A DNA stretch of 64,000 bases from Longimicrobiales bacterium (GTDB lineage: Bacteria; Gemmatimonadota; Gemmatimonadetes; Longimicrobiales; Gaopeijiaceae): the NCBI GenBank assembly GCA_965219445.1, contig CBDCNQ010000002.1, forward strand, positions 288,001-352,000. Direction: 5' to 3'. Below are positions 45,659 through 50,880 of this stretch, piece by piece (position 1 is the stretch's first letter; each line of letters starts with the position of its first letter). The position numbers and the translations under genes are program-made. The notes beneath the pieces were generated by a model. It was not told the DNA's origin. It saw only the letters and a program-made list of their open reading frames with translations, and ran no database searches.

Positions 45659-46774
45659 CAAGGTGGTCCCGGTTTTTTGGACAGGTCGTTAAGGTGGATT
45701 CCAGAGCGGAAGAGGAGGCACCGAGATGGCCAGGAAGAGACGGCGGTTCACGGCGGAGTTCAAGGCACGGGTAGCGCTCGAGGCGCTGCGCGAGCGGGAC
45801 AGCGTGCAGGCGATCGCGGCGCGGCACGAGCTTCATCCGAACCAGGTGACCACATGGAAGCGGCAGCTGCTCGAAGGGCTGCCGGAGGTGTTTGCCGGGG
45901 GCGCGGGCCGCAAGGCCGCCCTGGAGCACGAGGCGAAGATCCGGGACCTGCACGCCAAGATCGGGGAGCTCACGGTCGAGCGGGATTTTTTTCGGCGCGG
46001 GCTCAAGCGCTGAGCCGGGCGGAGCGGGGGCGGATGATCGAGCGGGACGGACCGCTGAGTCTTTCGAGGCAGTGCGCGCTGCTGGGCGTGAGCCGGTCGT
46101 CGCAGTACTACCGGCCGAAGGGGGAGAGCGCCGAGGACCTGGCGCTCATGCGGCGCATGGACGGGCTCCACACGGCGTATCCGTTCTACGGGAGCCGGCA
46201 GCTGATGCGGCATCTGCGCCGCGAGGGCGTTGCCGCGGGCCGGCACCGGATCCGGCGGCTCATGCGCCTGATGGGGATGGAGGCGACCTACCGGCGGCCG
46301 CGCACGAGCGTGGCGAGTCCGGAGCACCGGGTCTTCCCCTATCTGCTGCGGGGCCTCACGATCTCGCGGGCGGACCACGTGTGGTGCGCGGACATCACCT
46401 ATGTCCCGGTGACGCAAGGGTTTTTCTACCTGGTGGCTGTGATGGACTGGGCGACCCGGCACGTGCTCGCCTGGCGGCTGTCGAACACGATGGACGCGTC
46501 GTTCTGCGTCCAGGCGCTGGACGACGCGCTGGGCTGGAGGGCTCCGGAGATCCTCAATACGGATCAGGGCTCCCAGTTCACCAGCGAGGCGTTCGCCGAC
46601 CGGGTGCTGGGTGCGGGCGTGCGCTTCTCGATGGACGGCCGGGGCCGCTTCCTCGACAACATCTTCATCGAGCGGCTGTGGCGGTCGCTGAAGTACGAGG
46701 CGGTGTACCTCTACGAGCTCCGGGACGGGCCCGACGCCCAACGCATCATCGGCTCGTGGATCGACTTCTACAAC
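45659..46774 (+). mobile_element. IS3-family element, right end missing (boundaries approximate)
   Basis: Putative IRL AAGGTGGTCCCGGTTTTTTGGACAGG; orfA 45726-46013 (RRFTAEFKARVAL); T7 run at 45986-45992 in the orfA/orfB overlap; orfB DDE (ADITY, TDQGSQF, FIERLW) ends before the usual RPH motif. Confidence 0.9.
45726..46013 (+). CDS. IS3 transposase OrfA (HTH)
   Basis: MARKRRRFTAEFKARVALEAL..IAARHELHPNQVTTWK; GAGGAGG RBS. Confidence 0.9.
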   Translation: MARKRRRFTAEFKARVALEALRERDSVQAIAARHELHPNQVTTWKRQLLEGLPEVFAGGAGRKAALEHEAKIRDLHAKIGELTVERDFFRRGLKR

Positions 46775-46956
46775 AAGTACAGCAGTATGATCGCGAACAT
46801 CGTCCCATGCGGTCCCATAGTATTCCGTAAAGCGTTTGATTACAATGTGATACGGCATATCAGAGCCGTGTTCACAGGCTCCCTCTTGTGCCGGGTCGTA
46901 CCGTATTGTACCATTGTGTATCCGTCGATATGTGATACACAGGTAGGATACACCAC

Positions 46957-48153
46957 ATGCGTAAACGACCCCTTACGGCCGCCTTCGTGGCGCGAGTGAA
47001 GACGCCGGGACGCTACGGCGACGGCGGGCTCGGCGGGCTCGGCCTGTACCTCCGCGTCCACCGAATGAAGTCCGGGCGCGTCTCCAAGTCCTGGGGCCAG
47101 CGCATTCGAGTGGGAGGGAAGCCGACCAATCTCGGACTGGGCTCGTACCCGGTCGTGACGCTCAGGGAGGCGAGAGAGAAGGCGCTGGAGAACAGGCGGG
47201 CAGTCCATTGGGGCCACGACCCGAGAGACGCGGGGGTTCCCACCTTCGAGGCGGCCGTCGAGAAGGTGATGGCGATCCACTCGCCGACCTGGAAGAACCC
47301 ATCCCGCATGGCCGGGCAGTGGCGGCAGACGCTGCGGGACTACGCCCATCCGCGCATCGGCCGGAAACGTGTGAGCGAGGTCGCGACGGCCGACGTGCTC
47401 GCCATCCTCAAGCCCATCTGGTCGAGCAAGCCCGCGACCGCGAGGGCCGTGCACCAGCGGATCGGCGCAGTGATGAAGTGGACCGTCGCGAAGGGCTACC
47501 GGCCGGATAACCCGGCGGGGGACGCCATCGCCGCCGCGCTGCCGCGTAACGGCAACGCCATCCGGCATCACAAGGCGCTCCCGCACGGCGAGGTGGCGGC
47601 GGCTCTGGCCAAGGTCCGCGACTCGGAGTCCCATGCCGGTGTCCGGCTGGCGCTCGAGTTCATGGTCCTGACCGCGACACGCTCGAACGAGGTCCGGGGC
47701 GCGGCGTGCGACGAGGTCGAGCTCGATGTCTGGACCATTCCCGCCGACCGCATGAAGGCGAAGCGCGAGCACCGGGTTCCCCTGTCGGGGCGGGCCTTGG
47801 AGATCCTCGAGGAAGCCCGGAAGCTCCACGGCGGCGGCGAGATCGTGTTCCGGGGCGCGAAGGGAGGAAGGATCCACGCCTCGATGTTCAGCAAGTCGCT
47901 CCGGCGTCTCGGCATCGCAGGAACGCCCCACGGGATGAGGTCCTCGTTCCACGACTGGTGCTCGGAGACGGGCGTGGCGCGCGAGGTGGCGGAGGCGGCG
48001 CTCGCACACAAGGTCCGCAGTCAGGCCGAGGCCGCCTACGCCCGCTCGGACCTGCTGGACCGCAGGCGCGAGGTCATGCAGGCTTGGGCCGGATACTTGG
48101 CTGGCGAGACTCTAGAACCGGAGGCCCCGCCGATGCAAAGATCTCTCCGCTAA
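46957..48153 (+). CDS. P4-type tyrosine integrase with arm-binding domain
   Basis: GLYLRV, LGLGSYPVVTLREAR; catalytic R (TRSNE), K (MKAK), HGMR, LAH and Y (AAYAR) all present. Confidence 0.95.
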   Translation: MRKRPLTAAFVARVKTPGRYGDGGLGGLGLYLRVHRMKSGRVSKSWGQRIRVGGKPTNLGLGSYPVVTLREAREKALENRRAVHWGHDPRDAGVPTFEAAVEKVMAIHSPTWKNPSRMAGQWRQTLRDYAHPRIGRKRVSEVATADVLAILKPIWSSKPATARAVHQRIGAVMKWTVAKGYRPDNPAGDAIAAALPRNGNAIRHHKALPHGEVAAALAKVRDSESHAGVRLALEFMVLTATRSNEVRGAACDEVELDVWTIPADRMKAKREHRVPLSGRALEILEEARKLHGGGEIVFRGAKGGRIHASMFSKSLRRLGIAGTPHGMRSSFHDWCSETGVAREVAEAALAHKVRSQAEAAYARSDLLDRRREVMQAWAGYLAGETLEPEAPPMQRSLR

Positions 48154-48870
48154 CTCTTCCCCCACCTTCATCTAAGGCGCGAGTCTCAGTGCGTCGCGGC
48201 TGACGAGTTCTCCATGCCTCGACGACCAGAATGATGCCTTATCTCAGTAGACTCGTGCGACTCCAGGATAGCCTCTCTCCCCCCACTCGGCGAAAGTCAG
48301 CCCCTGAGGGTCCCACACGATACGGGGAAACTCCTTCTCCAGTCGACACGCTAACTCGGCCGCCTCGGGCACGACGAGCACGACCCTGGGACGCTCGTGG
48401 ACGGATAGCTCCTCGAGAAGATCCTTGTAGGAGCTGCCATCACTCGGGCTAAAGGAGTAACCGATGCTTATTACGATCGGATGTGATCGCAGCAATTCCA
48501 GCGCCTTCGACCGCACTCCCATCAGGAACTCCTCCCGGAGACCTTCGGCCTTCGCCGGGACGGGGGCGATGACACGTTCGGTTAGGTCTGGATTGTATCC
48601 CAAGCCACCCTCGGCGCGTATGTACGGAGAAAACAAGTCTCGCAGAGAGTGAGAATCGAACATGAACTTCGGACGGTCATACCACTTCATCAATGGGATG
48701 CCCTGCTCTGCCGCAGACTCAAAGGCATCATAGGGGCATGGCGACCGCTACCGGTACCGATCAGCAGCGAAGCAGCCCGAAGACGAAGAGGCGTTCTCCT
48801 CCGGGAACGGGTGCGCGTTCATCATTGTTCGCGCAAGGAAGCAACCCACCTATCCAAGAGGAGAACGCCG

Positions 48871-49926
48871 ATGGAGAGATATATCGGACTCGACGCACAC
48901 GCGTCGAGCTGCACGCTGGGGATCGTAGGACCCAGCGGCAAGCGCTTGGGCTCGCAGGTGGTGGAGACGAACGCGCGGGCGCTGATCGAGGTGCTGCGAG
49001 GGATTCCGAGGAACCGGCACTTGTGCCTGGAAGAAGGGACGCTGTCGGGGTGGCTGTACGAGGTGCTGGAGCCGCACGTGGAGGAGCTAACGGTGGCGGG
49101 GGTCGGCAAGAGCCGGGGCCCGAAGACCGACAAGCTGGACGCGTTTGCCCTGGCGGAGAAGCTGCGGATCGGATCACTGGAGACGAGGGTCTACAAGAAC
49201 CGGGGCCAGTTCAGGCGGCTGGGGGAACGGGCGAAGAGCTACGACTTCCTGGTCGGCGACACGGTGCGGGTGAAGAACCGGCTCAAGAGCGTGCTGCGCT
49301 CGAGAGGAGTGGCCTACGGCGCGGGGCGCTCGGTCTACTTAAAGCGCGACCGGGAGGAGTGGTTGGCCAAGCTGCCGGAAGCGAGCAGGACGACGGCCGG
49401 GTTGCTGTACGAGGAGCACGACGCACTCGTGGCATTGAGGGCGAAGGCCGAGAAGGCCTTGCTGGCGGAAGCACGCAAGCATCGAGAGTGGCATGTGCTG
49501 AAGACGTGCCCGGGTCTGGGTCCGATCCGGACGGCGGAGCTCCTGCCGGTGGTGGTGACGCCGTACCGGTTCCAGAGCCGGAGCAGGTTCTGGGCGTACT
49601 GCGGACTGGGCGTCGTGATGCGGAGCTCGTCGGACTGGGTGCGGGGTCCGGGTGGGCGGTGGGTAAGGGAACCGGTACAGCAGACGCGGGGGCTGAATCG
49701 GAACTTCAACCACACGCTGAAGCGTGTGTTCAAGGGCGCGGCGACGACGGTGATCGGTCGGGCCGAAAACGAACCCTTGTACCGCCACTACGAGCGACTC
49801 CTGGAGGGGGGCACGAAGCCGAATCTGGCGAAGCTGACGATCGCGCGTCAGCTCGCCTCGATCGTGCTAGCGGTGTGGCGCACGGGCGAAGCGTACGACC
49901 CCAAGAGACTGGAAGCGACGGAGTAA
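48871..49926 (+). CDS. IS110-family DEDD recombinase/transposase (351 aa)
   Basis: YIGLD, CLEE, KTDKLDA RuvC-like motifs; PGLGP; YCGL...RSS serine motif; GAGGAG RBS. Confidence 0.95.
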   Translation: MERYIGLDAHASSCTLGIVGPSGKRLGSQVVETNARALIEVLRGIPRNRHLCLEEGTLSGWLYEVLEPHVEELTVAGVGKSRGPKTDKLDAFALAEKLRIGSLETRVYKNRGQFRRLGERAKSYDFLVGDTVRVKNRLKSVLRSRGVAYGAGRSVYLKRDREEWLAKLPEASRTTAGLLYEEHDALVALRAKAEKALLAEARKHREWHVLKTCPGLGPIRTAELLPVVVTPYRFQSRSRFWAYCGLGVVMRSSSDWVRGPGGRWVREPVQQTRGLNRNFNHTLKRVFKGAATTVIGRAENEPLYRHYERLLEGGTKPNLAKLTIARQLASIVLAVWRTGEAYDPKRLEATE

Positions 49927-50292
49927 ACCGGGCCGGGATCGGCGAGCGTGGGGTCGAAAGCGGTCACAACATGGGGTCCGACGAAACGGAAGCGAACCGG
50001 TTACAGGGGACAGCATCCATACACACCGTGGGCCGGGGCAGAGAGCCCAAGCCCCCACTCAAAGGCTATGCACCCCTGGAGAGCCGAACGAAGCGATGGG
50101 CCACAGAGTCCCAGATAGAAGGATGGTTCCCGCTCCAGAGCGGAGAACGCGACGGCTGTGAACGTCTTCCGGACTGCGATGCGGACCCTGCGAGCGCACC
50201 CCTCCCCACCCTGAGTCGTCGACCGGGCAATCCAAACCATGCGGACGCCGACGGTCAAAAAATGAGCCGACGGCGCGTGGGGAAGGTGCGTC
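49927..50292 (+). ncRNA. putative bridge/seek RNA of the IS110 element (ends not determined)
   Basis: Stem-enclosed loops carry CACACC (50022-50027) and ACTCAAAGG (50057-50065), matching the target, and ATAGAAGG (50115-50122), matching the donor end. Confidence 0.82.
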
Positions 50293-50315
50293 TTGACCGC
50301 CAGCCCCATAGAAGG
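50293..50315 (+). promoter_or_regulatory. -35 half of a circle-junction promoter
   Basis: TTGACC plus 17 nt to the element end; joins CATCAT (48726-48731) when the element circularises. Confidence 0.7.
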
Positions 50316-50880
50316 TGTGACGCAGCGTGTACACGAGAAGGCTCCCGTGAAGGTGAAGGACAAGGTTCCGAGAGTCCTGAACGTCGTCCGTCTCGGCAGT
50401 GGGTCCTCGCCCTACTTTGACGGGGACACCGTATCCGTCGAGCGGAGACCAACGCCCAGCGCGGAGCAGCCCGTATTCCAAGAAGGAATCGTAGTTGAAC
50501 GACAGGTATGAGCTCTCAGGGAAGTCATCGATCATACGGCAGTACGGGTTGCCGTGATGATTAGGATCCAGCAGCCGTCGAGCGAGGTAGTAGTCCGCCT
50601 GCATGAGTGTATCGCACAAGCGTTTGATTGGCGCCGAGTCGCGAGAGCCCAGGGCATCGGCGAGCCGATTCTCCACTTGGTCTGGAGACACGGCCTCGGA
50701 AGAGTCGGGGAAGCAGATGCTTGGGAGGTCGCCGACCAGCGGATAGCGGCAGTCGATTTCGTACTCTCCGATATAGATCGACTCGACACGGATCGAGCCG
50801 GCTAGGCGCCGCGCATCCGCGCCGAACCCGGCTCCGACTAGAAAGAGGGGTGGTGGTTCGCTCGGCGACGTAGTCGTTTC

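Follow-up and report, generated by a model that had tools for sequence, protein, structure and literature searches.

An IS110-family insertion sequence with a right-end RNA whose loops match target and donor, found in IS256 left terminal repeats

The window analysed here, a stretch of 64,000 nucleotides of Longimicrobiales DNA, carries a 1590-bp insertion sequence (48725-50314, plus strand; ends GCATCAT... and ...ATAGAAG), delimited from its copies, an empty allele and the crossovers of homologues. In all likelihood it belongs to the IS110 family, is apparently active, and is of the IS1111-like type that has its RNA in the right end, with loops that guide both target and donor. The original prediction of an intact IS110-family recombinase followed by a right-end RNA, with a first loop for the target, a second for the donor and the right guide placed 5' of the left, is borne out. 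The element represents a well-supported new case of a known RNA-guided mechanism, and not a new mechanism.

By analogy with the rest of the family, the element would form a circle with the junction ATAGAAG/GCATCAT (the slash marks the point of joining, here and below), thereby creating a promoter; the right-end RNA would be processed and bound by the recombinase, and catalysis would be carried out by DEDD residues plus a serine. In the proposed scheme TACACACC pairs with the top strand to the right of the crossover and CTCAAAGG reads the bottom strand to its left, whilst ATAGAAGG reads the left donor and ACGAAGC probably the right. The natural target in this lineage is a resident IS256, in its left terminal repeat, GAGCTAGGATCAAAG/GGTGTGTAAA. 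IS256 would multiply independently, supplying new targets, and would putatively be inactivated by the splitting of its repeat after base 15.

The element, its copies and its recombinase

There are 22 full copies of the element in this genome, 98-100% identical to one another. Their right ends vary only by one additional A, which falls outside the loops, and at two sites immediately past the stop codon. The empty allele of the window site was found on one contig, from run X4, which skips exactly 1590 nt with a 4-nt ambiguity. Exact removal of 1590 nt restores a minus-strand frame of 285 codons, as opposed to 127 or 136 codons if one nucleotide more or less is taken. The frame test thereby defines an interrupted host gene, with its 5' part at 50315-50691 and its 3' part at 48244-48724 (both minus strand); the former has a weak SIR2-like match to PF13289 (E=0.0019, 18.7 bits against a cut-off of 24.5). 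Comparison with empty sites shows that no base is gained or lost on insertion, and that at most one G is shared.

Local alignment of the two ends reveals a short and imperfect subterminal inverted repeat, with its left arm, GGGGC-A-TGGCG, at 48733-48743 and its right arm, CGCCAGCCCC, at 50298-50307 (plus strand). In the inferred circle junction a candidate -35 box, TTGACC (50293-50298, plus strand), would stand 17 nt from CATCAT (48726-48731, plus strand), a candidate -10 box. Promoters of this kind, formed at circle junctions, are described for the family in the available portions of PMC11187229 and PMC11208160. No circle junction was present among the contigs of three sequencing runs.

A number of further observations concern the copies and their surroundings. 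Two haplotypes, one of them marked by a 6-nt insertion near 48848, are combined as mosaics in the 22 copies, and in several a 1-nt deletion at 49899 alters the last codons. A relict left end from a related IS110 element (83%; G000:C2:661546-661602, G000 being this genome) has the flank GGGATAGG, which is the commonest guide among homologues. The right ends at three loci (L156, L065 and G000:C5:1612735) join the element's own guide loop or ORF; these self-joins occur at short donor or target half matches, consistent with half-match recombination. Two others, L062 and L174, have an additional AAG at the right junction. Within the window the element sits in an island-like region, in which 45726-48153 holds a phage-type tyrosine integrase (46957-48153, Pfam) and a two-ORF element, presumably IS3-like, interrupting a sensor-kinase-like gene. 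A different repeat of 1.57 kb occurs with 100% identity at G000:C2:526541-528110 and some 20 further places.

The recombinase (48871-49926, plus strand) is a protein of 351 aa in which both PF01548 and PF02371 score above cut-off. D8, E54, D87, D90 and S253 are invariant in an alignment of 15 homologues, and the DEDD positions align with those of IS621, to whose profile the protein has a distant match (E 3.9e-6). The NCBIfam IS110 model (NF033542) gives 112.8 bits over the full length, below its curated cut-off of 140, which we read as divergence because both Pfam domains pass. A weak HMM match to TIGR-Tas (57.6 bits, cut-off 100) was set aside, as the DEDD domain is present. Several broad marks of the IS110 family are found: the Pfam domains, a structured RNA with covarying loops, and insertion that is specific for site and orientation and brings no net duplication.

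Narrower placement within the family is less straightforward. As in IS1111 elements, the longer non-coding region lies downstream of the transposase gene (388 nt, against 146 nt upstream), and in all homologues scored the top-strand complement (50020-50027) precedes the bottom-strand match (50058-50065). The IS1111 subterminal repeats as defined by Siddiquee et al. are near-perfect over 11-13 bp, with extensions of 7 bp on the left and 3 bp on the right; here the match covers 10 bp and contains an indel, at distances of 8 and 7 nt from the ends. Similarly, the motif GL-P----S(t)G is replaced by GLGVVMRSSSDW, with neither the P nor the G in any of 15 homologues. In a tree of 20 proteins, among which there is no verified canonical IS1111 member, the window clade is monophyletic (100/99), and the tree does not resolve the backbone or the sister group. 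On account of the repeat, the motif and the tree, the element was kept out of the canonical IS1111 group: it is an IS110-family member which, judged by its organisation, appears to function like an IS1111-type system.

The clade is a large one, with 3,083 protein clusters at E <=1e-20 among 8,000 scored, and its identity to annotated IS110 elements is at most 27.6% among the 40 best plasmid matches. It occurs in the supplementary table of PMC11208160, and on the sequence comparisons the recombinase appears to belong to a deep clade with no ISfinder name among the rows listed there. Named records with recombinases 95-100% identical are metagenome-assembled genomes of Longimicrobiales (Gemmatimonadota). 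Among viral contigs, a single-protein search returned no relatives and an alignment search one weak match.

Guides, covariation and RNA fold

Two segments of the first internal loop match the target. The right target guide, TACACACC (50020-50027, plus strand), base-pairs with the IS256 left repeat's top strand, GGTGTGTA, at 8/8 positions, and with six contiguous bases at the window site. The left target guide, CTCAAAGG (50058-50065, plus strand), fits the window site at 8/8 and the IS256 repeat, ATCAAAGG, at 7/8. The words first noticed, like the stems, are present as described: ACTCAAAGG at 50057-50065 equals 48717-48725, CACACC at 50022-50027 is the reverse complement of GGTGTG at 50314-50319, and ATAGAAGG at 50115-50122 equals 50308-50315. 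Over 20,000 mononucleotide shuffles of 49927-50292, ACTCAAAGG, CACACC and ATAGAAGG arose in 0.16%, 17.6% and 0.6%, respectively, and all three together in none.

Since none of the 22 copies differs from the others in its loops, covariation cannot be sought within the genome, and homologous loci were instead collected from genome scans, metagenome scans and relatives. Sufficient downstream sequence was available at 147 loci. The target-loop motif was present in 109, and the other 38, distant relatives near 40% identity and broken ends, were dropped; de-duplication left 27 left guides with their left flank (two rows with a mis-extracted guide were retained in the test) and 40 right guides with their right flank. 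The loops change along with the flanks, which is the outcome expected of guides; loops held constant beside differing flanks were not what was found. The summed identity of the left guide reaches 7.0/8, against 4.48 when permuted (maximum 5.48; 0/10,000). Covariation is seen at positions -2 and -4 to -8 and is absent at -9 and -10, whilst -1 and -3 hardly vary. A 9-nt guide was accordingly discarded (position -9, 0.19 against 0.18 permuted): the 9/9 match first proposed does exist as a string, but its first A lies outside a guide of 8 nt. For the right guide, the best of three registers gives 5.35/7 against 3.22 permuted (maximum 4.0; 0/10,000), although about 10 of the 40 unique guides match their own flank at <=4/7. 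These permutations ignore relatedness and so overstate significance, yet the guides differ in many independent ways. The first internal loop is thus shown by covariation, in so far as comparative sequence can show it, to read the target through both guides.

The second loop presents the left donor guide, ATAGAAGG (50115-50122, plus strand), and in 42 of 46 unique sets the first 7 nt of this guide equal the right end of the element that carries it. At its third position guide and end agree without exception (A/A 26, G/G 20, discordant 0). Covariation shows this loop to be, at sequence level, a reader of the left donor. The right donor guide is probably ACGAAGC (50088-50094, plus strand), a discontiguous match making 5/7 pairs with GCATCAT at positions 1, 2, 4, 5 and 7 (58 unique sets). 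Position 5 is G-C in 52 sets, A-T in 4 and G-T in 2, and all four G-to-A changes accompany a C-to-T change in the left end; the assignment accordingly turns on one covarying position in four related elements, the other paired positions being near-invariant, in part because they were built into the search pattern. The relaxed pattern used for the donor loop recovered 119 loci with a target loop and 111 with a donor loop. Of the two candidates proposed at the outset for this guide, GAAGC(G) is the better; GATGC (50178-50182) falls outside the conserved region and was rejected, occurring in just 21 of 92 homologue segments. A register using GATG (50095-50098) was likewise rejected, as it varies whereas the left end is constant (pairing 0.60 and 0.83 at two positions).

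The guides are held in a conserved structured core (50004-50150, plus strand; ends approximate) comprising a target stem-loop, a donor stem-loop and a short 3' hairpin, as predicted by RNAalifold from 54 of the 109 RNAs, chosen to be <88% alike. The outer stem, CAGGGG (50004-50009) with CCCCTG (50073-50078), lies where it was first drawn. Both sides change in 17 of the 30 consensus pairs and 95% of cells in the alignment are paired; none of 500 shuffles reaches any of the measures, and slid controls collapse to 34-54% paired. Folding of 49927-50292 as a single sequence, as originally suggested, does give two internal loops, but the fold does not stand out from those of shuffled sequences (z -1.45, with 9 of 100 shuffles folding as well), so that the support for an RNA structure comes from the comparative signal. 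Rfam returned no match at E <=1 in 48600-50500, and RNA run X20 (share 0.09) yielded a single contig, inside the ORF.

Target choice and the crossover

In 21 of the 22 full copies the left junction lies within the left inverted repeat of an IS256. The host element is about 1.39 kb long, scores 297.7 bits with NF033543 (cut-off 150) and is bordered by duplications of 8-9 bp. The left flank in these 21 is the start of the repeat, GAG(C/G)TAGGATCAAAG, and the right flank is GTGTGTAAAA in 19, a probable intron in one and a tandem self-piece in one. With partial elements included, 23 IS256 left repeats are occupied, all after base 15 of the 25-bp repeat, at the same base and in the same orientation. 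Five left repeats are free, every one with changes within the guide footprint. Of the right repeats 29 are intact, with no insertion in any of them. At one occupied repeat a further insertion of about 1.9 kb (G000:C4:1169766-1171669, minus strand) lies 3 nt past the element's right junction; its ends, GTGG...CCCGAT, resemble those of a group II intron.

The window copy is the sole full copy outside IS256, and is a near-cognate off-target insertion in a host gene. Its target halves are CTCAAAG (48718-48724, plus strand) on the left and, from the empty allele, GTGTG (50315-50319, plus strand) on the right. The guides fit the IS256 repeat at 7/8 on the left and 8/8 on the right, and the window site at 8/8 on the left and six contiguous bases on the right; by a simple match count 34 free genomic sites, one of them an altered IS256 end, score at least as well as the window site. 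The window site had been put forward as the programmed target, a position that must be given up, the dominant target being the IS256 left repeat.

Relatives show both similar and altered targeting. Two of them, with proteins of 97% (L067) and 68% (L166) identity, have ATCAAAGG and are inserted in the same left repeat of IS256. In a third (L069, 94%), with the guides TCACTAGG and TACGCACC, the left junction lies in the right repeat, the right junction not being repeat. Counts of left ends as occupied, free with an intact footprint, and free but altered are 23, 0 and 5 in this genome, 5, 0 and 10 in G417, 6, 2 and 3 in G007, and 2, 0 and 2 in G272, those of relatives being made with a fixed-length pattern that is blind to indel alleles. 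The intact empty repeat, GAGCTAGGATCAAAGGGTGTGTAAA, has 44 exact copies in G443, 5 in G444 and 1 in G007. G443 has the same guides with one occupied and at least 44 free intact left ends, indicating that targeting is not always saturating; G444 has none occupied and at least 5 free intact. Two other insertions by relatives may be noted: L287 in G417 is a second off-target copy, with the left flank GTCAAGAG and a left-guide match containing a 1-nt bulge, and a 40%-identical relative in G005 (15 copies, including L036, L040, L043, L046 and L049) is inserted at CTAAC/GTCTCTGC, which resembles an integron attC site, its loops matching this target by eye.

It is attractive to consider these patterns as an arms race, in which a core-free clade, with a right guide sliding by 1-2 nt, is a programmed parasite of IS256, and IS256 escape is answered by guide retargeting; taken as a whole this is a tentative reading which we regard as rather doubtful. 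On it, the element would fill and probably inactivate IS256 left ends, and the guide would be retargeted from the left to the right repeat in G444. In genomes rich in the element, free IS256 ends are altered at the target, as are all 5 here and all 10 in G417. The altered left-end alleles include GATCGAAG, GATCAGAG, ATCAAATG and GTGAGT, and escape by means of such free ends stays a lead, because three of the five here resemble excision scars or polishing errors. That the altered ends are scars of excision, or artefacts of assembly or polishing, and not selected escape alleles, has somewhat less than an even chance of being right, and bears on the arms-race lead only. It fits these three ends well, as each consists of GATC followed by the closing bases of the element's right end, and they sit in host bodies identical to those of occupied copies; it fits less well in G417, where ATCAAATG is found in eight copies and another allele in two, both unlike the element's end, and none of the 10 free left ends is intact.

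A distinct question is how the occupied repeats arose. Most of them might go back to a few insertions, later multiplied by gene conversion or as part of an IS256::IS110 composite, in place of repeated RNA-guided insertion. Many of the host copies are identical or nearly so (0-6 differences), the IS110 elements are mosaic as described above, and target-site duplications are exchanged among host copies, all of which composite spread would account for; on C2-C5 of this genome these duplications are swapped in pairs and 3-cycles, through rearrangement between copies or mis-assembly. However, near-identical IS110 copies also reside in host variants lying 21, 46, 154 and 280 alignment columns from the main group, so that several insertions must be independent, and the 25-bp repeat is split after base 15. 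Composite spread as the main route is for these reasons unlikely, if by no means negligible, and repeated RNA-guided insertion is the preferred reading.

The crossover itself can be placed from the origin of the junction bases. The supposed GG core does not behave as one unit. Its first G follows the guide (G 18, A 8, C 1; n=27) while the donor keeps G, so that this base, two before CATCAT, derives from the target. ATAGAAG is followed by G in 34 of 40 unique guides and by another base in six, whilst G is almost always found before CATCAT, which makes the latter G element-derived. In G417 the five occupied sites read GATCAAAG/GCATCAT...ATAGAAG/AGTGTGTAAA, equal to the full 25-bp repeat, and the target, GATCAAAG/AGTGTG, lacks the second G. 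Together these place the crossover at ATAGAAG/GCATCAT with at most one shared G. An extent of 48726-50315 had been given earlier; its length of 1590 nt stands and, owing to shared bases, it is equivalent in this copy, but from the crossover position the element is better written as 48725-50314.

An IS621-like arrangement, with a 2-nt GG core common to target and donor, overlapping guides and a fixed register, was the form in which the core had been predicted. It accounts for the window copy taken alone, whose junction is ambiguous over AAGG, and for the G that follows the right end in most guides. It is nonetheless improbable, given that in 8 of 27 cases the first G turns to A together with the guide and the donor G stays unchanged, that six of 40 guides have a non-G after ATAGAAG, that the G417 sites keep the full repeat length without a second G, and that at the main target the two guides overlap by 1 nt. 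A core of at most one base is preferred, with a register that appears to vary: the loop position facing the base immediately right of the crossover is 10 in ten, 9 in four and 8 in five unambiguous cases of the 40. For the window RNA it is 9 at IS256, as against 8 at the window site, and both empty sites are known; among homologues the empty sites are unseen, so that junction editing could mimic a sliding register. The window event could be mainly a left-guided half match, by analogy with the half-match recombination described for IS621 in the available part of 10.64898/2026.08.31.748434. Finally, that the matches are chance or DNA-level remnants without guide function, for which the ordinary single-sequence fold (z -1.45) and the frequency of the 6-mer alone (17.6% of shuffles) might be cited, can hardly be credited when the target guides on both sides covary with their cognate DNA, as does the left donor guide, and the stems around the variable loops show covariation of their own.

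Significance and comparison with known systems

The element provides a fully mapped, multi-copy bridge/seek RNA with dozens of naturally reprogrammed relatives, which are material for learning pairing rules beyond IS621 and ISEc11. If the core of 0-1 nt and the sliding register are true, target choice would be freer than with the CT core of IS621, and also less exact. Its targeting of IS256 provides a simple means of asking whether elements guided by RNA restrain the spread of other insertion sequences; a literature search for IS256 as an IS110 target, judged by titles and listings, returned no paper describing it. Were the wider reading correct, insertion sequences would be engaged in an RNA-guided arms race, and the recombinase would be core-free and programmable.

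Parallels can be drawn with several known systems. IS4321/IS5075 and ISEc21 are, in the partial accounts available, also IS110-family elements programmed against mobile elements (the Tn21 terminal inverted repeats and IS3 transposase genes, respectively), whereas the target here is the IS256 left terminal repeat. ISGdi15 and ISMno22, named members of the 40 best plasmid matches, share a weak full-length similarity (about 24% identity) with the window recombinase but fall in a separate clade of the tree.

The IS621 bridge RNA, as presented in the accessible part of PMC11208160, likewise has two internal loops, target then donor, with the target loop variable and the donor loop conserved; DEDD plus serine is also common to both, as would be a junction promoter and, probably, discontiguous right-donor pairing. 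By contrast, the window RNA lies in the right end of its element and that of IS621 in the left, and the guide order is reversed. The window element lacks a 2-nt core read by all four guides, its right target guide is 7-8 nt with a variable register, and its protein is only distantly alike.

The reversed guide order, although correctly noted at the outset, is not unusual, as it equals the order published for IS1111 seekRNA in the section of PMC11187229 available, and right-end bridge RNAs are predicted in most IS1111 elements in that of PMC11208160. The IS1111-type seekRNA elements ISEc11, ISKpn4, ISPa11 and ISPst6 (PMC11187229, same section) resemble the window element in having a non-coding region downstream of a DEDD recombinase of about 340-350 aa, a top-strand complement 5' of the bottom-strand match, no target duplication, and naturally retargeted relatives. 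Against that description, the window element has neither the 11-13 bp near-perfect subterminal repeats with 7/3 bp extensions nor the GL-P----S(t)G motif, carrying GLGVVMRSSSDW at its C-terminus, and it possesses a second, donor-matching loop made evident by covariation.
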